36,791 bases of DNA from a virus (IMGVR_UViG_3300046004_001633:1-36791), one strand, 5' to 3'. Shown: positions 7,578 through 21,412, numbered from the stretch's first letter. Made by a program: numbers and translations. Notes: a model not told the origin generated them from the sequence alone.

Positions 7578-9680
7578 ATGACACAACTGAATAAAATTAT
7601 AAAATTGGTATTAGATGAACAATCAACTAGTCCAGGAGTTGCTGCGGCTAGACTTATAGCTAAGAAAATTTATAACGCAAAAGGTATTGCATGGGATGAT
7701 GAATTTGCGGCACTTCAAGCAATTTTATCTATTAAAGATATAACTCAATTTAATTTAGTTCAAAAAGAATTACAAAAATTATCCGGTGGGAAAGGAATCG
7801 CACAATTTGTTTCTGAATTTATTGTTGTGCGAGATTCAATGAATGCCGAGTATGCTCCTACGACGATCCGGTATATAAAATCGATTATAGCACATTTAAC
7901 TAATATTGGAGCTTACAAACAGACAATCAATATATTCAATGAAAAATTAAAATGGATAACCAATTGGTCTAAAGTAAACGCAAACCTAGCATCAAAAGGC
8001 GCAGGCCAAACACAATTTGCATGGGAAACATTCGCGGAAAAAGCAGCAGTCGATCCTGAATTTAAACATAATTATCTAACTAGCTTGCAAATCTTGGCAA
8101 CATTTATTCCAGTTATCGGATGGATTGTTTCTGCAGAAATCGGGCTTGGAAACGCATATGTATATTATCAAGAAGGTGATACTAAACAAGCTGGCCTAGA
8201 AGCAATATTTGCTGCTATACCTGGCCTAGGTTTTGCTAGCAAGCTAGGACTTAGTAAAATAGCTCCAAAAGTGATGGCTGGATTAGGAAAGAAATTGGCA
8301 TTAAACCAAACTAAAAATCTTACTAAACAAGAAATACGAATATTAGATATACTAGGTAAGAATCAAAAAGCACTTAAAACTGAACTAGATAACTACTTTA
8401 AAACTGGAATAGCTAAAAGTGCTAAACAACTATCACGTGATAAAATAGCAGCTGCTACTAAAAAATATGGAATAGGTTTAGCAAAGACTTCTGGGACATT
8501 AGCTTCATATATGACAATAGCAAAGTTATATAGTGATGTGTATGATGCAAATGCGCCACAAATAACAGATTCTGAATTACTGGCATTAAATAATAAATTA
8601 GATGCTGACTTTGAACGATGGCTAGCTACCCGATATAGAAGTAAAATATCAGACGGTATTGTCCAAACTAATAATACCAAACTAAATGAAGCTCCAATTG
8701 ATGCATTGAATTTTATTATAAATAATCCTGCAACTAGTGCAGTATATGCCGCCGCTGCCTCTGCTGTAATAATTGCTTTCAGTAAACGACTCAGATCATT
8801 GTTGATAAAACTTCCATTGGTGAAGCAAATTCCGGCAATGTATAATGATCTTCGAGATCGAAACTTCTTAATAAGAAATGGCTTAAAAGAAGCCGGTCAA
8901 ATTAAACAACTATATAAATCTGGGGAGATGCTTAGTACATATGAAGATATTTGGCGTAACACAGAAGCTGCAGTAAAACGTGGTGAAATGACTCCACAAG
9001 AAGCCATGAAATCTATTAAGTTTATAAAAACACCAGGTACTGCAAAACTAACATTTAAACAACTTACAGCATATTATGATGATGCTGTCAGGACAAAGGG
9101 TATGGTAAAGAGTGCTGCGAGTGCAAAAGCAGTGGCAGCAACACCAAAAACAGCATCAGCTGAATTTGAAAAATTTATAATGAGTTCAGACCCAACATTA
9201 TCCGCGATTCCAAAAGCAACTCCTAAAGTTGACGCAGCTCTTACCGCAGTACAAGATATCCCGGTAAGAAAATGGGTAGATTGGGAAAAAGCACATGCAA
9301 AGCAAGGAGACTTAGCAAGAGCAATCGAAACATTGGATGCTCGCAGCAAACAAGAGTATAAACTATTTAAATGGTTAGTTGGCGTATTAACGGGGGTGCC
9401 AATTGGACTATGGGGGTTAATGAAAGTGTATCAATCATCTGATTCAAAATCAACCGCAAAAGCAAATTGGCCTGAATTTAAAAAATGGTTGGATATTCGC
9501 AACATGAAACCTGCCGAAATTAAGACGACTACTACCACAAAGAAAAAACCAACCACAGTACCTACCACAACTAAGGCTCCGGTTGTTCGTACCGATATCG
9601 ACCCAACGGATACTACTTCGAAGGCTAGTAATGCGCAAGCGCCGGCTGAAACCGAAGATCAATTTACTGGATTCCAATAA
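7578..9680 (+). CDS. Large probable virion/internal protein with hydrophobic helical hairpin
   Basis: Start moved to MTQLNK (7578), 4 nt after ATATTTAT; hydrophobic segment ILATFIPVIGWIVSAEIGLG...AIFAAIPGLG; Thr/Lys-rich C-terminus. Confidence 0.6.
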   Translation: MTQLNKIIKLVLDEQSTSPGVAAARLIAKKIYNAKGIAWDDEFAALQAILSIKDITQFNLVQKELQKLSGGKGIAQFVSEFIVVRDSMNAEYAPTTIRYIKSIIAHLTNIGAYKQTINIFNEKLKWITNWSKVNANLASKGAGQTQFAWETFAEKAAVDPEFKHNYLTSLQILATFIPVIGWIVSAEIGLGNAYVYYQEGDTKQAGLEAIFAAIPGLGFASKLGLSKIAPKVMAGLGKKLALNQTKNLTKQEIRILDILGKNQKALKTELDNYFKTGIAKSAKQLSRDKIAAATKKYGIGLAKTSGTLASYMTIAKLYSDVYDANAPQITDSELLALNNKLDADFERWLATRYRSKISDGIVQTNNTKLNEAPIDALNFIINNPATSAVYAAAASAVIIAFSKRLRSLLIKLPLVKQIPAMYNDLRDRNFLIRNGLKEAGQIKQLYKSGEMLSTYEDIWRNTEAAVKRGEMTPQEAMKSIKFIKTPGTAKLTFKQLTAYYDDAVRTKGMVKSAASAKAVAATPKTASAEFEKFIMSSDPTLSAIPKATPKVDAALTAVQDIPVRKWVDWEKAHAKQGDLARAIETLDARSKQEYKLFKWLVGVLTGVPIGLWGLMKVYQSSDSKSTAKANWPEFKKWLDIRNMKPAEIKTTTTTKKKPTTVPTTTKAPVVRTDIDPTDTTSKASNAQAPAETEDQFTGFQ

Positions 9681-9729: not shown

Positions 9730-10992
9730 ATGAAACTAGAAAAACTATTAGCAGAGAATATGCTAAGATTTGGTACCAAGAATTTGATAGCATCTGATAT
9801 TAAGCCGTACCTAATGGAACAGACTCAAGTACCACCGGCAATATATGGAAAAAATGTAACACAAGGAAATGTAGCACAATTACCTACGATAGCCAAAACA
9901 TATGATCCGACTAAAGGTGCAATTAGAATACTTGACGGAAATCCATGGTTAGCTACCCAACGAGCTACTGCACTACAACAATTTTTAGTACAACGATTTC
10001 AAGGTATATTTAAAATTCCATTCGATGCTGCGTCAGCAAGAATTACACAAACCGTTGTAGAAGGTTCTGGCGATACGTATCAATACATGAAAGCTACAAT
10101 TAAAGCTAAATTATCAAAACCGCCAAAGACACAAGATCCTTATAAGTTTGATATATTATATAATTTTTATGATATTAACGGAGTTCCGCACATATTAGTT
10201 ACTAAAGGTGGCAAAGGTAGTCCAATTAAGGGCGCGGCTGAAACAACGATTAATCAAATGAAATCTCAAATGCCAGCTGGCTCGATACTAGTACGACAAG
10301 GTACTGGTGGAGGTAATGCGACAGGTCCAAACGAACTAGAGGCCGTGACAGGTATCATGATGCCAATAACAGCTGGTTTTGCTGCAAAGAAAAAAGGGAG
10401 ATTATATTTTACAGATGCTAAACAATATGAAGCAATGAAGAAATTTATTGCAGCCTATACCGACTTAGCAGATGCCGGCGGGAAAGTAAAAGAAACTGGT
10501 GATTTAAAGGGACGTACCCAATTGCAATCTAATTTCACGTCAGAACGAGGCGGTGGCGGTAATTATATTTTTGGCGATCTAGGCTCAGGCCGTACGGCGG
10601 AAGTTCTTGCTGGAAAAGATGCCGGTACAAATATTACAATTAAACGAATGGAACCTAGTAAATCGGGAGTCCTTCCGGGAGAGATACTTCCGGGTCAAGA
10701 AGAAAAATGGTTTCCAATTGCTGAAATAATTTATCCTGGACTTTTCCCGGATAATTTAATTACCATTAAGCCAGATAAATATGCAGAAATTTTTGATAAG
10801 ATTCAAACGCAAATTACCGATTTACGAAATGAAGGTTATGAACCAATTGAAATGACAGCTGAAATACAAGGATTTGCTAGTAAGGATGCTGCAAATAATA
10901 AATGCCCACAAGGACTTAAACCAGATCATTCATGGGGATTAACAAATCCACAACAAGGACCAATAACGGCAGAAAAGTGGATAACATTATAA
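9730..10992 (+). CDS. Probable virion/internal protein with OmpA-like (peptidoglycan-binding) motifs
   Basis: MKLEKLLAENMLRFGTKNL leader; NPWLATQRATALQQFL and FPDN...IQGFAS motifs; ATATTTAT at 9703-9710. Confidence 0.5.
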   Translation: MKLEKLLAENMLRFGTKNLIASDIKPYLMEQTQVPPAIYGKNVTQGNVAQLPTIAKTYDPTKGAIRILDGNPWLATQRATALQQFLVQRFQGIFKIPFDAASARITQTVVEGSGDTYQYMKATIKAKLSKPPKTQDPYKFDILYNFYDINGVPHILVTKGGKGSPIKGAAETTINQMKSQMPAGSILVRQGTGGGNATGPNELEAVTGIMMPITAGFAAKKKGRLYFTDAKQYEAMKKFIAAYTDLADAGGKVKETGDLKGRTQLQSNFTSERGGGGNYIFGDLGSGRTAEVLAGKDAGTNITIKRMEPSKSGVLPGEILPGQEEKWFPIAEIIYPGLFPDNLITIKPDKYAEIFDKIQTQITDLRNEGYEPIEMTAEIQGFASKDAANNKCPQGLKPDHSWGLTNPQQGPITAEKWITL

Positions 10993-16462: not shown

Positions 16463-17821
16463 TTATTTGTATGCTAAGAAAAACGCCTCAGCTGCGGATT
16501 GTCTTTTTGGATTAATAGTTGCTGGTCTTTCAAAATATTTTGCAAATGCATATGCAGCATCACCCGGTGTATTTTGTTGTTTTAACTTGTTTAATGCATT
16601 TTTTTCAGTATTAGTTAATTCCCACCAAAGATATTTTAACTGGCCATCGACTGACGCAGAATCAACCCCATTGTCTTCTGACCATTGTTCTAATTTATCT
16701 CGTCGAGAATCTCTCCACTGTGCTAATCCAATTGCCTTACCAGAATCTCCAACAGCTGCTGGATTAAATCCTGATTCAGCTTGTATATTACCTGCGATGC
16801 CTGCTGCTTGCTCCGGAGAAAGTCCTTTGCCAGTAAAGAAGTCAATTACCGTGTTAGCATCAGAGATATTCTTAGATGATACATTACTAGGTTTTATAGC
16901 TGCAGCAGTTCCAGCGCCGTATAATGATTTTAGTGATAAAGAATCTTTATTTGTAATCTTACCAATCATTTTCGATAATACACCGCTAGCACCAACTGGT
17001 TTATTCATTAAGTTATTCAATTCAGATTTAGTTAATTCACCGGTTGGCTCTTTCCCTATAGATTTTTGGAACGCAATTACACCTGCTTCGGTGTGAGGTC
17101 CAAATTTGCCATCAACTCCATCAACTCCAACATCAAACCCTAATTCTATTAATTTAGTTTGAATTTTTTTAACAGAATTACCAATACTGCCTTTTTGTAA
17201 CGTAGTAGTATCAGTTAATTTTTCTTCTTTATCGGTAATTGGCATCTCTGATAAGATTGCAGCCTTCCATTCGGCAGCTATTTTCTTATGTGCGTCTGCA
17301 TCTAAATGTACATGATCTTTTGTAAAATCTAATTTATCAAAATTTTGTGTATCAATTACAGCATCTGCTTTAGATTGTGATGCTAACCAATTGGCAATTT
17401 TATCGTTAGCAGGATATCCGTCTTTTCGATAATATTTATCGTCTGTTTCTATGAATTGTTTTGATGGATTTGTGACAACTACTAATTTTGCGCCGGCTTG
17501 TCGAACCAGATTAAACATGGCCTCAAAATTCTTAATAGCATTATTCGGCGTTTTAGATGCTCCATCATTACCGCCAGCCATTATTGACACAATATCATAC
17601 TTATCAGTTAGATTGTCTTCTAACATGTTTAATACTTCAGTTGTAGAAGCACCATTTTTAGCAACAATTTTACCATCAATTAATTTATTGCGTAATAATA
17701 CCTTAGCATAGCTCCAATTTGCTGCAGTTTGTGAATCTCCTACGAATAAAACACGAAGTTTCTTGGTAGAATCTGATTCTTTAGTAGCATCTTCGAATAA
17801 TAATGTTTTTAATCGAATCAT
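16463..17821 (-). CDS. SGNH/GDSL hydrolase + peptidoglycan-binding domain + phage tail-type lysozyme fusion
   Basis: FVGDSQT, AGGNDG, DHVH (SGNH blocks); LQKGSIG...VKKIQTKL...DGKFGPHTEAGVIAFQ (PG_binding_1); LSPEQAAGIAGNIQAESGFNP...GLAQW (Phage_lysozyme2). Confidence 0.88.
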   Translation of the reverse strand: MIRLKTLLFEDATKESDSTKKLRVLFVGDSQTAANWSYAKVLLRNKLIDGKIVAKNGASTTEVLNMLEDNLTDKYDIVSIMAGGNDGASKTPNNAIKNFEAMFNLVRQAGAKLVVVTNPSKQFIETDDKYYRKDGYPANDKIANWLASQSKADAVIDTQNFDKLDFTKDHVHLDADAHKKIAAEWKAAILSEMPITDKEEKLTDTTTLQKGSIGNSVKKIQTKLIELGFDVGVDGVDGKFGPHTEAGVIAFQKSIGKEPTGELTKSELNNLMNKPVGASGVLSKMIGKITNKDSLSLKSLYGAGTAAAIKPSNVSSKNISDANTVIDFFTGKGLSPEQAAGIAGNIQAESGFNPAAVGDSGKAIGLAQWRDSRRDKLEQWSEDNGVDSASVDGQLKYLWWELTNTEKNALNKLKQQNTPGDAAYAFAKYFERPATINPKRQSAAEAFFLAYK

Positions 17822-17964
17822 TTTCCTTGGCCTACGTTAATTTTTGTGTAATTCTTTGCGTTTTTACTAACACTTGATTTAGTTTTTGCATGAACCCCGG
17901 GTCTTTTAACTTTTGGCTTAGATACATGTCCACTTGAACTATTTGCTTTAACTTTTGCTGCCAT
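17818..17964 (-). CDS. Small basic protein (48 aa)
   Basis: Not in the ORF track. MAAKVKANSSSGHVSKPKVKRPGVHAKTKSSVSKNAKNYTKINVGQGK; ATGA overlap with the next gene; ATATTTAT at 18020-18027. Confidence 0.7.
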   Translation of the reverse strand: MAAKVKANSSSGHVSKPKVKRPGVHAKTKSSVSKNAKNYTKINVGQGK

Positions 17965-18047
17965 AATTTAAATCTCAAAAATATGTTTGTTCAAAATATA
18001 ATACTTTGAAGTTATATTAATAAATATATACCGTACTAAAATCCAGT

Positions 18048-18080
18048 AAAAAAACCCGGGCTGCGAAAACCCGAGTCTTA
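18048..18080 (-). terminator. Probable intrinsic terminator
   Basis: GACTCGGG...CCCGGGTT hairpin followed by a T run on the minus strand, downstream of 18110-18484. Confidence 0.55.
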
Positions 18081-18109
18081 ACTATACCGTCTAAGGTAGC
18101 AGACGCTCT

Positions 18110-18484
18110 TTACTGTAAGTTTTCTAATTTATACACGGTAGTGTAGATTAAATCTTTTACAGCATCTAACTGATTGATAATATTTGTATCTTCTTTTGGA
18201 ATTTTATCATATGCTCGCTCAATAAATGTAGCTAATCCTTTAAAGTATTTACTAACAGTTTTCGATTCAAAGTTATCGAATTTTTCTGCTGGAGTATATC
18301 CGCTAACAATTCCATGCTTTCCTTGATATGATTCAACCAATGCATCAATTAGGCCCGGAATTGCATCATAGTAAGCATTAAGTGCTAGATGCATAGCAAA
18401 TGACCCGGGGCCTTTTGTCTGCCAATGGAAAATGTGAGCTTGATCACGAGATGCCATTAATGTTGATATTATTTTTTCAAACAT
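18110..18484 (-). CDS. Ferritin/Dps-like four-helix protein (DUF5856-like)
   Basis: AHIFHWQT..GSFAMHLALNAYYD...IDALVESYQG motif known from T4-like phages. Confidence 0.75.
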   Translation of the reverse strand: MFEKIISTLMASRDQAHIFHWQTKGPGSFAMHLALNAYYDAIPGLIDALVESYQGKHGIVSGYTPAEKFDNFESKTVSKYFKGLATFIERAYDKIPKEDTNIINQLDAVKDLIYTTVYKLENLQ

Positions 18485-18488
18485 AATA

Positions 18489-19490
18489 TTATTTTCTTAG
18501 CTCAGCGCCAATTAGATTCTTTTTAAGTCTAGATACGAATCCCTCATTCATTGATTCATTAGTTCTTATTTTTTGCATAATCATATCAATTTGACCATCT
18601 ACACGTTGTAATGCATCTCCATAATAATCCGCAACCGGTCCTCCTTCTGGCTCAGCTTCTTGTTCCATATCGAATTCAATTTGTTTACGTTGTGCTTTTA
18701 ATGATACTAATTTTTCTCGATAAAAATTACTAGGAGCTTTTATTGAGCTTGTTGTTGTCGGTTTTGAAATATCACGCATTCCCATTTGAATAGGATCATT
18801 CCATCGTGTATCAGCGTCTTCTTGCCCAACTGCTTCATTTGCCGCAGACTTCATTGACTCTTTCTCATTACCATCTCCGTCTAAATCTAAAAAATCAGGT
18901 TTAGCAGATTCTTGCTTATTACTATTTTTATTGCGATCAGCCCATCTTCGACCATTATGTCCGCCATTCGTATCATCGTATTCCATATTCCTATCTTCTT
19001 GCTCTTTAGCTTGGTCTTCAGCATTTAATAAATCAATAAGTTCTTCATGGTTTACTAATCCATCAGAACCCATAATTATCATATCTTCCATACCTGCTAA
19101 TTCAGCAGCTGCTATTAATTGTCTGTCAGACATCGAATCATATGAACCACCCATTGGATTTGCGTTAGCTGATTCATTTTTATAATATCCAAATGGAATA
19201 TCTAACATATCAGCAATCTCACCTAGTGCTTCTGTACTAGTAAGCGAATCTGAATTATATAATCGTTCAATAACATCTAGTTCTGCTCTAGACTTATTTA
19301 ATGCTTCATCAAATTCTTCTGGAGTTAATCCTAACTCATCAGCGATTTCATCAAATAGATCTCCTGCATTTTCTTTTAGTTGTTTAGCATCATACTCTGC
19401 TTTAACTTCAGCCATTGTAGGTAATCCCTTACCTTCTTTACGTTCCCACGCAAATCCTTCAGTTAATATTGTTTTTAGTTTTATCATCAT
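18489..19490 (-). CDS. Acidic probable internal head protein
   Basis: MIKLKTILTE leader; KPDFLDLDGDGNEKESMK EF-hand-like motif; several xxE^S/A/G sites; ATATTTAT at 19501-19508. Confidence 0.6.
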   Translation of the reverse strand: MMIKLKTILTEGFAWERKEGKGLPTMAEVKAEYDAKQLKENAGDLFDEIADELGLTPEEFDEALNKSRAELDVIERLYNSDSLTSTEALGEIADMLDIPFGYYKNESANANPMGGSYDSMSDRQLIAAAELAGMEDMIIMGSDGLVNHEELIDLLNAEDQAKEQEDRNMEYDDTNGGHNGRRWADRNKNSNKQESAKPDFLDLDGDGNEKESMKSAANEAVGQEDADTRWNDPIQMGMRDISKPTTTSSIKAPSNFYREKLVSLKAQRKQIEFDMEQEAEPEGGPVADYYGDALQRVDGQIDMIMQKIRTNESMNEGFVSRLKKNLIGAELRK

Positions 19491-19507
19491 TTCCTTTTAT
19501 ATAAATA

Positions 19508-20281
19508 TTACATGTCCGAATTATTCGGTGTATCAATTCCAGATGCATCGTATCGAACTGCTTTGTTAAGTCGTCGGGGAGTACTTTGCATTGAAAATCC
19601 ATTATTAGTTTGCATCCAGAAATCATAATGAACTAGTTGTCCTTGTTTGTTCCAACCCATATTATCACCATGTGCTTCGGATGGCATTATACTATTTCGT
19701 TTGAATGCTGATAACACTGATTGACGTTGCGACATTATGCGATCTGCCCATCCTTCTGGAACTTTGAATCTAGACCCATCCATTTTATCCTCTAGTTCCA
19801 TCGCAGTTAATTCATCTGAAAATCTTGGCGATACATAGTCAGCTTGTATTTTATACCAAATTCCTTTTTCATTGTCGTCAAACGGAGTTACATAGTCCAT
19901 TATAATAGCATACCAATCATCGTTGTTTAAATCTAAAATGTATGATTTAAAATCTTCTGGGGTATTTTGAAAACCAGGATCGTTAGTGTTAACTATATCT
20001 CCAGTAATTGGACGTACATCGTATACTGATACGAGATGTGGAACATTTTGTTTGGTGCGATATCGGGAGGCAGCAGCTACTTCCCATTGGTCATTGGTAA
20101 TTTTCATTACCTTACCACTCTTTAAAAGAAATGCTACTCCATTATTACCGCCACCAAGTACTCGATCGAACTTCTCTCCAAATTGAGCAGCTAGTGCCGG
20201 TGCCCGGTTCTCTATCCAATATTGTTTAGATGTTGGACTTGTGTAATATGTCTGTTCGAGCAGAGTTTTTAATTTTATCAT
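19508..20281 (-). CDS. Protein kinase-like fold protein with capsid-targeting-like leader
   Basis: Gly loop LGGGNNGVAF, VMK lysine, YAIIMDYV hinge, SEAHGDN catalytic-loop-like and YDF motifs. Confidence 0.65.
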   Translation of the reverse strand: MIKLKTLLEQTYYTSPTSKQYWIENRAPALAAQFGEKFDRVLGGGNNGVAFLLKSGKVMKITNDQWEVAAASRYRTKQNVPHLVSVYDVRPITGDIVNTNDPGFQNTPEDFKSYILDLNNDDWYAIIMDYVTPFDDNEKGIWYKIQADYVSPRFSDELTAMELEDKMDGSRFKVPEGWADRIMSQRQSVLSAFKRNSIMPSEAHGDNMGWNKQGQLVHYDFWMQTNNGFSMQSTPRRLNKAVRYDASGIDTPNNSDM

Positions 20282-20289
20282 TCTAATCC

Positions 20290-20799
20290 TTAATTAATAC
20301 GTTCTATACCTGTACCCATATGTGACGTAAAAAATCTATATCCTAATTCTCGGAACTTTGCATCATTGTCTCGGGCAAACTGAATATACAGTCGGTTCTT
20401 TTGGGCCGCCTTAGCTAGGTCAGAATCTGATCCTGTAAATTCAATCATTAATGGTTGCACAATTCCTTCTGGACTAGTTGGATCAATAAAAGCTAATAAT
20501 CCGGCGCCTACCGTTGCCATGATGCGAAGATAGTTTGCTGGTACTTTCTCTTTTGACTTATTGGTGCTATGAAAATCAGATCCTCGAGGTTTTACAAAAA
20601 ATGATAATTCTAATTCAGAATCATCTTCATCAGAATCAAATGGTGTTTGGTCTGCTAAATTAACAATTACCTCATTATCATATTCATCAGTAAACATAAA
20701 ATCATATCCACCACCGGAAAGTGTCCAATGTATATTTTCAACATATGGTTTAATATTTCCGAATGCAATTTCAGATAATAGTGTTTTTAATTTTATCAT
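20290..20799 (-). CDS. Probable internal protein, paralog 1
   Basis: MIKLKTLLSE leader; LRIMATV...FTGSD...KNRLY motif shared with the next gene. Confidence 0.6.
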   Translation of the reverse strand: MIKLKTLLSEIAFGNIKPYVENIHWTLSGGGYDFMFTDEYDNEVIVNLADQTPFDSDEDDSELELSFFVKPRGSDFHSTNKSKEKVPANYLRIMATVGAGLLAFIDPTSPEGIVQPLMIEFTGSDSDLAKAAQKNRLYIQFARDNDAKFRELGYRFFTSHMGTGIERIN

Positions 20800-20800
20800 T

Positions 20801-21343
20801 CTAATCCTTTATCCCAGTAGTATCAGCATTTGATTTTCTTACGATAAACAATTTACCCATTCGATCTAATACAGTGTATCCAGCAGTAGTTAACTCAGCA
20901 GCGTTAGCAGCTAACAAGGCACGGTATATGCGAGTCTTTTGCATATCTTTATCCGGTAAATTATCAGATCCGGTAACATCAATTGATGTAACATCATATA
21001 TGCGTATAAAGTCAAGTATGCATTCTAACACAGTACCCATAAGACGAAGATATGATATTTTACCGGTTGCATCACTTCGTGAATGCGAGATAGTCCAATT
21101 TATACGTTCTGTGTCAGGGTCGGTGCTTTGTGCTATTATACTAAACGACCAATTAGATTCATCATCACGTCCCCATTGTTTATCAAAATTGAATGCCATT
21201 AGTACGCCATCGCAGCTAACACGACTTTCAACAAATTCAATATCATTGCGACTGCTAGATTGTTCTTTCCACGTAAATTGTGTAGCATATGGTTGCACAT
21301 TAGACAATGTAATTTCAGAAAGCAGCGATTTTAATCGTATCAT
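20801..21343 (-). CDS. Probable internal protein, paralog 2
   Basis: Start moved to MIRLKSLLSE (21343), 4 nt after ATATTTAT; LRLMGTV...VTGSD...KTRIY motif. Confidence 0.6.
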   Translation of the reverse strand: MIRLKSLLSEITLSNVQPYATQFTWKEQSSSRNDIEFVESRVSCDGVLMAFNFDKQWGRDDESNWSFSIIAQSTDPDTERINWTISHSRSDATGKISYLRLMGTVLECILDFIRIYDVTSIDVTGSDNLPDKDMQKTRIYRALLAANAAELTTAGYTVLDRMGKLFIVRKSNADTTGIKD

Positions 21344-21412
21344 ATTAATAAATATAGTAAGATGTAAATAGCCCGCTAGTACGTCCCTAACGGTCCCGTA
21401 CTGTCCGGCCAC

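Follow-up and report, generated by a model that had tools for sequence, protein, structure and literature searches.

Proteins injected by phages act ahead of any phage gene expression, and the few that have been studied (Ip1-3 and Alt of phage T4) block host defences or retune host transcription; such proteins are hard to find because they have no common sequence. Polyvalent proteins of phages and conjugative elements, reportedly treated by Iyer, Burroughs, Anand, de Souza and Aravind in 2017, are also thought to enter the host with the DNA. The closest described system is that of T4, where the capsid-targeting sequence (CTS) of the internal proteins (IP) IPI, IPII and IPIII, and of Alt, is removed by the prohead protease gp21 (Mullaney and Black, 1996, as cited in PMC9026906; PMC3012670; PMC12373910). 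The protease cleaves after the Glu of (L/I)-x-E inside the prohead, and the first 10 residues of IPIII are enough for packaging (PMC9026906). About 10 IP types are described for T-even phages (PMC12373910), and in the giant phages phiKZ, 201phi2-1 and SPN3US ejection or inner-body proteins are processed by gp21-like proteases (PMC9026906, PMC5694885, PMC7411985). Here we describe a comparable arrangement in a stretch of 36,791 nucleotides (nt) of viral DNA (IMGVR_UViG_3300046004_001633:1-36791; the window), which makes up the leading 36.8 kb of a viral contig in IMG/VR (100.8 kb long, with a completeness rating of about 60%). Five adjacent minus-strand genes at 16463-21343 share the start M-I-(K/R)-L-K-(T/S)-(L/I)-L-x-E, and we regard the decapeptide M-I-(K/R)-L-K-x-(L/I)-L-x-E (the tag) as probably a lineage-specific version of the T4 CTS that is removed by a gp21-type protease. 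This T4-style reading, put forward in a preliminary description of the DNA, is supported by sequence tests of the restriction to N-termini, selection on the peptide, the gp21 motif, co-occurrence with the protease, the promoter and the variable locus.

The likeness to T4 has several sides. A leader of about 10 residues at the N-terminus, ending in (L/I)-x-Glu, is in both cases the sole feature common to otherwise unrelated proteins; both have variable loci and a gp21-family protease (here in the genomes of relatives), and neighbouring genes can have identical leader DNA, over 30 nt in T4 ipII/ipIII and 27 nt here. An ADP-ribosyltransferase is among the cargo of both, the packaged Alt in T4 (PMC9026906) and ART-PolyVal here. 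The leader itself differs (MIKLKSLLxE versus MKTYQEFIAE), the nearest T4 propeptide being that of gp24, MAKINELLRE. The cargo is far wider than in T4, which has three to four such proteins, whereas here at least 52 families and at least 12 tagged genes per genome were found, large enzymes included. The lineage is also remote from the T-even phages, the DNA polymerase of the contig being 42% identical to its counterpart in Microcystis phage Mel-JY01 and about 30% identical to gp43 of marine T4-like cyanophages, and the function of the leader, established in T4, is a prediction here. With polyvalent proteins the system shares the same kinds of effector domain, ART-PolyVal and a kinase-like domain (that of cargo 3 in Table 1) which is also found within proteins of 1000-2400 amino acids (aa), although many domains are joined in one giant protein there and separate small genes are tagged here. 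In the giant phages, too, a diverged gp21 homolog cleaves many different head-internal proteins after Glu, and these reach the host, as is proposed here; the giant-phage propeptides, however, are long and varied with several cut sites (PMC9026906), in contrast to the single fixed decapeptide here.

The leaders MIRLKTLLFE (17821), MIKLKTLLE-Q (20281), MIKLKTLLSE (20799) and MIRLKSLLSE (21343) were found on the minus strand as first described, and MIKLKTILTE is real as well, its open reading frame (ORF) beginning at 19487 with a second Met at 19490. For the ORF at 21343 an alternative GTG start at 21412 is possible; the ATG at 21343 is favoured because a promoter motif lies 12 nt ahead of it. 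Searching the whole contig for the leader had been proposed as a check, and a regular expression for the core motif, applied to all six frames of the 100.8 kb, gave seven matches, all at ORF starts. These lie 3-35 codons past the preceding in-frame stop and head ORFs of 169-452 aa, the seventh (MIRLKNLLSE, 60556) belonging to a lysozyme and LysM protein. A degenerate DNA pattern had four matches in the window, where 100 shuffles gave an expectation of 0.00. Looser variants of the leader start genes at 9730, 7578, 82569, 85357, 60882 and 58147. MKLEKLLAE at 9730, already noted as a possible member, is a true variant, as a protein with the same next ten residues (NMRRFGTKNL) in the complete relative G001 (159,586 bp with terminal repeats; 82 ORFs in common with the contig, collinear, median identity 61%) has MIKLKNILAE. 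For the 7578 protein, the homolog in G001 begins with MIRLKKLLEQ. The reported identity of two gene junctions over 27 nt was also recovered (20265-20291 = 20783-20809) and takes in 10 nt upstream of the ATG.

When about 1 Mb of this and related DNA was searched at the protein level by regular expression, 51 matches were obtained, and 51 of 51 headed ORFs of at least 60 aa. Among the 34 distinct leaders M1, I2, L4 and E10 were invariant and L8 was kept in 33, while position 3 was encoded by CGA, CGT, CGG, CGC, AGA, AAA and AAG and the Leu positions by four to six codons each, including TTA, CTA, CTT, CTG and TTG. Because the codons differ while the residues stay, selection is on the peptide and not on the DNA. 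Three distant homologs of the paralog family (cargoes 4 and 5 in Table 1) keep I2, L4 and E10 behind a conserved N-terminal extension of 75 aa, with Arg or His replacing Met; since these internal, Met-less copies retain the tag residues, the leader is not a start-codon context. At L195 (1178-1909, proteins P0003-P0005) the internal tag reads RIRLKDLVFE after the 75-residue extension, and the adjoining genes bear normal N-terminal tags. Such an extension may represent either a propeptide of unusual length or another cargo, fused to the first and freed by cleavage.

All leaders of the window end in the gp21 motif (L/I)-x-E, as L-x-E or L-L-E. The T4 propeptides, read from the T4 genome, follow the same pattern as the tag (gp24 MAKINELLRE/S, gp22 MLKEQLIAE/A, IPII and IPIII MKTYQEFIAE/A); a separate homolog of the vertex protein gp24, sought in G001 for propeptide comparison, was not found in that genome. 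Peptidase_S77, the gp21 family, was detected in 10 of 11 tag-bearing contigs that are at least 90% complete (4/4 and 6/7), and the G001 protease (gene at 87996-88628) is 34% identical to T4 gp21, with a major capsid protein in the same genome 26% identical to gp23. In G005 and G004 the gene after the protease is canonically tagged (MIRLKNLLKE and MIRLKDLLKE, respectively), and in G005 the protease gene is also preceded by a canonically tagged gene, MIKLKSILIE. The tagged protein after the protease in these two genomes has a homolog in the small protein that comes next to the protease in G001 (E = 3e-13); at this place the variant starts MKTPNLKFILE and MRIKDLLE are found in G001 and G002. The tagged gene after the G005 protease is followed by a DUF5856 gene whose product is 46% identical to that of 18110-18484 in the window, and this copy sits in the head module, next to the protease and a tagged core-like protein. 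For the G001 protease paired with residues 1-45 of a tagged protein from G001, complex prediction yielded a score of 0.00, which is counted neither way.

Relatives of the contig were obtained by scanning IMG/VR with a DNA pattern and with the DUF5856 protein as anchor, 13 close relatives being located through the DUF5856 gene. A swapping of cargo behind a common leader had been proposed, and the comparison agreed with it, since tagged genes stand at the same place in 12 of 12 relatives with a contig spanning the upstream side, and the cargo differs. The site lies between a conserved block and an array of small early-type genes and holds one to six tagged genes in each relative, about 10 families in total. 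G001 has four tagged genes at the locus and at least 12 genome-wide, at six or more scattered sites. Cultured phages gave zero matches both in a near-identity DNA search with the locus 16463-21343 and in tblastn searches with the kinase-like protein and the tagged lysozyme-LysM protein, and IMG/VR scans with single proteins (paralog 1 and the kinase-like protein) returned no relatives.

The DNA-pattern scan of IMG/VR led to at least 120 loci, nearly all matches being ORF starts. Among the matches listed, 104 complete tagged ORFs form at least 52 families without mutual BLAST link, and an alignment of 52 family representatives has only M1, I2, L4, K5, L8 and E10 in common, the very residues fixed by the search pattern, so that this alignment cannot count as independent evidence. 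The kinase-like family, collected via its domain in a full HMMER search, is a sample with less bias, and about half of its small members bear the tag at their start. Pfam analysis of tagged cargo elsewhere gave ART-PolyVal, LysM, Hydrolase_2, M23, CCA-adding/poly(A) polymerase-type and 2H phosphoesterase-type domains, cargo types which, as predicted from sequence, fit delivery into the host. No tag was found in T4 and three marine cyanophages. A cultured carrier is Microcystis phage Mel-JY01 (PP395634.1), with a cluster of tagged genes at 60.3-62.8 kb; WWT39342.1 and WWT39345.1 are among the tagged proteins of this phage. The cluster (L201, 60276-62790) shows cassette turnover: besides two full-length paralogs of 216 and 220 aa it has a copy truncated to 60 aa and a remnant of 18 codons in which the leader is still perfect.

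Late expression of the tagged genes is suggested by their promoter motif. The motif ATATTTAT occurs mostly on the coding strand (29 vs 8 copies on the contig, 53 vs 13 in G001), 10-45 nt ahead of start codons, and in G001 it stands upstream of structural-module genes, including a sheath-sized and a portal-sized one. The expected enrichment of the leader behind late-type motifs was observed, with an own copy of ATATTTAT in 8 of 12 tagged genes vs 12 of 152 other ORFs (p = 4e-6); the remaining four tagged genes lie in tight operons behind such a motif. The motif often ends 4 nt before the ATG (ATATTTATTAAT-ATG), as at 21343 and 7578 in the window and at 58147 and 60882 on the contig, a spacing that would leave transcripts with almost no 5' leader. 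Operon-internal genes have an AAGGA box 7-8 nt upstream instead.

From these observations the following course may be proposed. Tagged proteins would be made late, alongside the head proteins, and the tag, as a short, flexible, amphipathic N-terminus, would bind the cargo to the scaffolding core of the prohead under assembly. A gp21-type prohead protease would cleave after Glu at (L/I)-x-E, and the mature cargo would be free in the head, to exit together with the DNA when the next cell is infected. The variable cassette site is the locus 16463-21343, occupied here by a wall enzyme of three domains, the kinase-like protein, the acidic cargo 2 and the pair of small acidic paralogs, with at least six further tagged genes elsewhere on the contig. 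An anti-defence role may be supposed from the cargo types. The leader DNA may in addition serve as recombination homology, as the one 27-nt identity and its 30-nt parallel in T4 ipII/ipIII would indicate.

Several points weigh against such a CTS-like role. No head genes and no Peptidase_S77 were found on the 100.8-kb contig (about 60% complete), so the protease link depends on relatives; the contig's first base falls within baseplate genes, and the portion absent from it corresponds to about 64 kb of G001, bearing the head and tail modules. Peptidase_S77 also gave no match in G008, a complete tag-bearing genome of 207 kb. The motif (L/I)-x-E is short and would be frequent by chance, and the tag shows no similarity in sequence to the T4 IP leader MKTYQEFIAE beyond the pattern of M, a basic residue, two hydrophobics, x and E; because only this pattern is common, the tag is to be taken as an analogue or a distant relative of that leader. 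ATATTTAT is also found ahead of the DNA polymerase, the GroEL-like gene and homing endonucleases, which need not be late. Some tagged cargoes are large (700-760 aa among the matches listed), and a tagged enzyme of the CCA-adding type could equally act in the producing cell. Finally, core binding, cleavage, packaging, injection and the role of the cargo in the host are steps that we infer from sequence.

Since the Glu with its (L/I)-x-E site is the most conserved part of the tag, the decapeptide might be a propeptide for cleavage only, for instance to keep toxic enzymes latent, or it might be an address to a tail or baseplate compartment, for which it speaks that the lysozyme domain of cargo 1 is of a family usual in tail tape-measure and tail-tip proteins and that the tagged locus lies about 15 kb from baseplate genes. 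We consider either version unlikely. The T4 protease acts within the prohead (PMC9026906), and being cut would therefore imply presence there, while a 10-residue tag that is disordered and outside the fold in both structure models (predicted local distance difference test (pLDDT) values of 42 and 38; residues 1-8 of cargo 3 below 50) is unlikely to keep an enzyme inactive. Positions 1-5 (M-I-K/R-L-K) are moreover conserved like the cut site though the T4 protease needs only L/I-x-E, so that they must have another role, and in G004 and G005 it is the gene of the head protease, and not those of the tail, that has tagged genes beside it.

Very unlikely, in our view, is recognition of the tag by some other enzyme or route, such as a maturase of the type acting on ribosomally synthesised and post-translationally modified peptides (RiPP), a phage GroEL-like chaperonin, or export. 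A phage GroEL-like gene does stand behind the same promoter motif, and several cargoes target the cell wall; however, besides the head protease no enzyme gene was seen travelling with the tagged genes, which occupy six or more scattered sites in G001, and the end of the tag is exactly the protease site. Export is further opposed by the tag itself, 10 residues with Lys/Arg, Lys, Ser/Thr and Glu in which no hydrophobic core or stretch, twin-arginine or lipobox could be read, so that it is not a Sec, Tat or lipoprotein signal, and by cargo with cytoplasm-acting folds (kinase-like, ADP-ribosyltransferase, CCA-adding-type enzyme). We give hardly any credence to the remaining explanation, that the shared start is a nucleic-acid feature, either an A-rich translation-initiation region or a DNA-level recombination or cassette site, with the peptide as by-product. 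The A/T-rich leader DNA (ATGATAAAATTAAAAAC), the two junctions that agree in all of 27 nt, 10 of them ahead of the ATG, and the identical 30-nt leader DNA of T4 ipII and ipIII would agree with it, but the 34 leaders vary in synonymous and Arg/Lys codons while residues are kept and Glu10 is invariant, the tag residues persist when internal and without a start codon, and no match was seen outside an ORF start. Recombination via the leader may occur as a side effect of a tag that, as we prefer to read it, directs cargo into the capsid.

The principle of such a leader is known from T-even phages (PMC3012670, PMC9026906, PMC12373910); the tag sequence, the lineage and the breadth of the cargo were not found in the literature searched, where no paper contained MIKLKSLL, MIKLKTLL, MIRLKSLL or MIRLKTLL and none mentioned Mel-JY01. 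New elements are the syntenic variable locus, the protease-adjacent tagged genes, the contrast to a leaderless endolysin (below), the evidence from the kinase family and the cultured carrier, through which the idea is directly testable. If the tag is tied to the head protease, effectors could be listed from sequence across hundreds of environmental phage genomes, which would give a large candidate set of anti-defence and host-takeover proteins; phage heads could also be loaded with foreign proteins by means of a leader independent of the one already available. A much broader proposal is tentative and, taken as a whole, rather doubtful: the tag might be a general capsid-cargo label in a large, mostly uncultured T4-like branch, all genes behind it (those for wall hydrolases, tRNA-repair-type enzymes, ADP-ribosyltransferases and kinase-like proteins as well as dozens uncharacterised) might encode injected effectors of the first minute, leader DNA and ribosome-site box might be where crossovers carry cassettes from one locus or genome to another, and other lineages might use other labels for these cargo families, e.g. 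the M-K-Y-L-K-x-F-E start of kinase-like paralogs.

Table 1. Features of the tagged locus and of related genes in the window (positions counted from the first nucleotide of the window; pI, isoelectric point).
Feature	Position	Strand	Remarks
Putative late gene, about 700 aa, diverged leader MTQLNKIIKLVLDE	7578..9680	+	promoter motif 12 nt before 7578
Variant-tagged putative late gene, 420 aa, MKLEKLLAE then NMLRFGTKNL	9730..10992	+	promoter motif 27 nt upstream
Tagged cargo 1, 452 aa: MIRLKTLLFE + SGNH/GDSL esterase + PG_binding_1 + Phage_lysozyme2	16463..17821	-	Pfam E 3.8e-11, 8e-12, 1.7e-37
Very basic 48-aa protein, no leader	17818..17964	-	pI 11; promoter motif 63 nt upstream
ATATTTAT late-type promoter motif, operon 17964 to 16463	18020..18027	-	same motif ahead of G001 structural-module genes
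DUF5856 protein, 124 aa, no leader, conserved anchor gene	18110..18484	-	58 related loci
Tagged cargo 2, 332 aa, pI 4.4: MIKLKTILTE + conserved GFAWERKxGKxLPT segment + variable acidic tail	18489..19487	-	
Tagged cargo 3, 257 aa: 9-residue leader MIKLKTLLE then Q + minimal protein-kinase-like fold	19508..20281	-	
27-nt junction: AAGGA-type ribosome-site-like box, spacer, first 17 nt of leader	20265..20291	-	identical to 20783-20809
Tagged cargo 4, 169 aa, acidic: MIKLKTLLSE, paralog 1, DUF6934-like family	20290..20799	-	
27-nt junction, second copy	20783..20809	-	
Tagged cargo 5, 180 aa, acidic: MIRLKSLLSE, paralog 2	20801..21343	-	own promoter motif 21348-21355, 12 nt before ATG

The cargo types named in the preliminary description of the locus (Table 1) stood up to closer analysis. 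The lysozyme/esterase call for cargo 1 agrees with the Pfam assignment of an SGNH esterase, PG_binding_1 and Phage_lysozyme2, and its tagged homologs in the same locus of relatives differ in architecture (360-645 aa). The leaderless 48-aa protein, with 12 Lys/Arg and zero acidic residues, is encoded by a gene that shares 4 nt with the start of cargo 1 and is retained immediately upstream of the lysozyme gene in relatives; this protein might condense DNA in the head or act as a partner of the wall enzyme. The DUF5856 gene carries a ferritin/Dps-like PHROG name. It accompanies tagged genes both in the variable locus of the window and, in other genomes, next to the protease in the head module (L126 2972-3343; L128 325-696). 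Cargo 2, correctly called an acidic protein according to its pI, has its own promoter motif at 19501-19508 and belongs to a family present in nearly every relative's locus (118-333 aa).

The kinase-like call for cargo 3 is supported by a model with a pLDDT of 91 and by PDB fold matches mostly to protein kinases; the matches listed were nearly all of this kind with few aminoglycoside phosphotransferases, at low TM-scores. Glu occupies the usual position of the catalytic Asp, and the family of 198 homologs has the invariants K60, E67, G209 and D220. Kinase-like homologs on other contigs (L206 126-1023; L207 112-997; L208 450-2215) have a different recurring start, M-K-Y-L-K-x-(F/Y)-E, which resembles the T4 IPI start MKTFKEF; they occur in tandem arrays, and an unrelated neighbour starts with MIHLKYFE. 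This start may be the leader of another lineage, on contigs too short to reveal the phage type.

A probable lysis cassette was recognised outside the window, at 64393-66120 of the contig. It contains a leaderless Amidase_2 (65201-65875), likely the endolysin, between small proteins that start with a hydrophobic N-terminus and were taken for membrane proteins on inspection by eye. In G026 a leaderless lysozyme of 155 aa stands in place of the Amidase_2; Peptidase_M15_4, sought as an alternative endolysin type, was not found. Because leaderless endolysin candidates are present, the tagged wall enzymes would be additional to the endolysin.

Cargoes 4 and 5, described from the start as two paralogs, are 32% identical. 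The model of paralog 1 reached a pLDDT of 78, and the fold search gave weak GNAT-acetyltransferase-like matches (best E = 0.026), so that this resemblance of the paralog family is a weak lead and not a finding. A family member at L148 (951-1787) is extended at its C-terminus by a further domain of about 100 residues, in which a GNAT-like Q/RxxGxG/A-type motif occurs, in keeping with these weak matches of the family.

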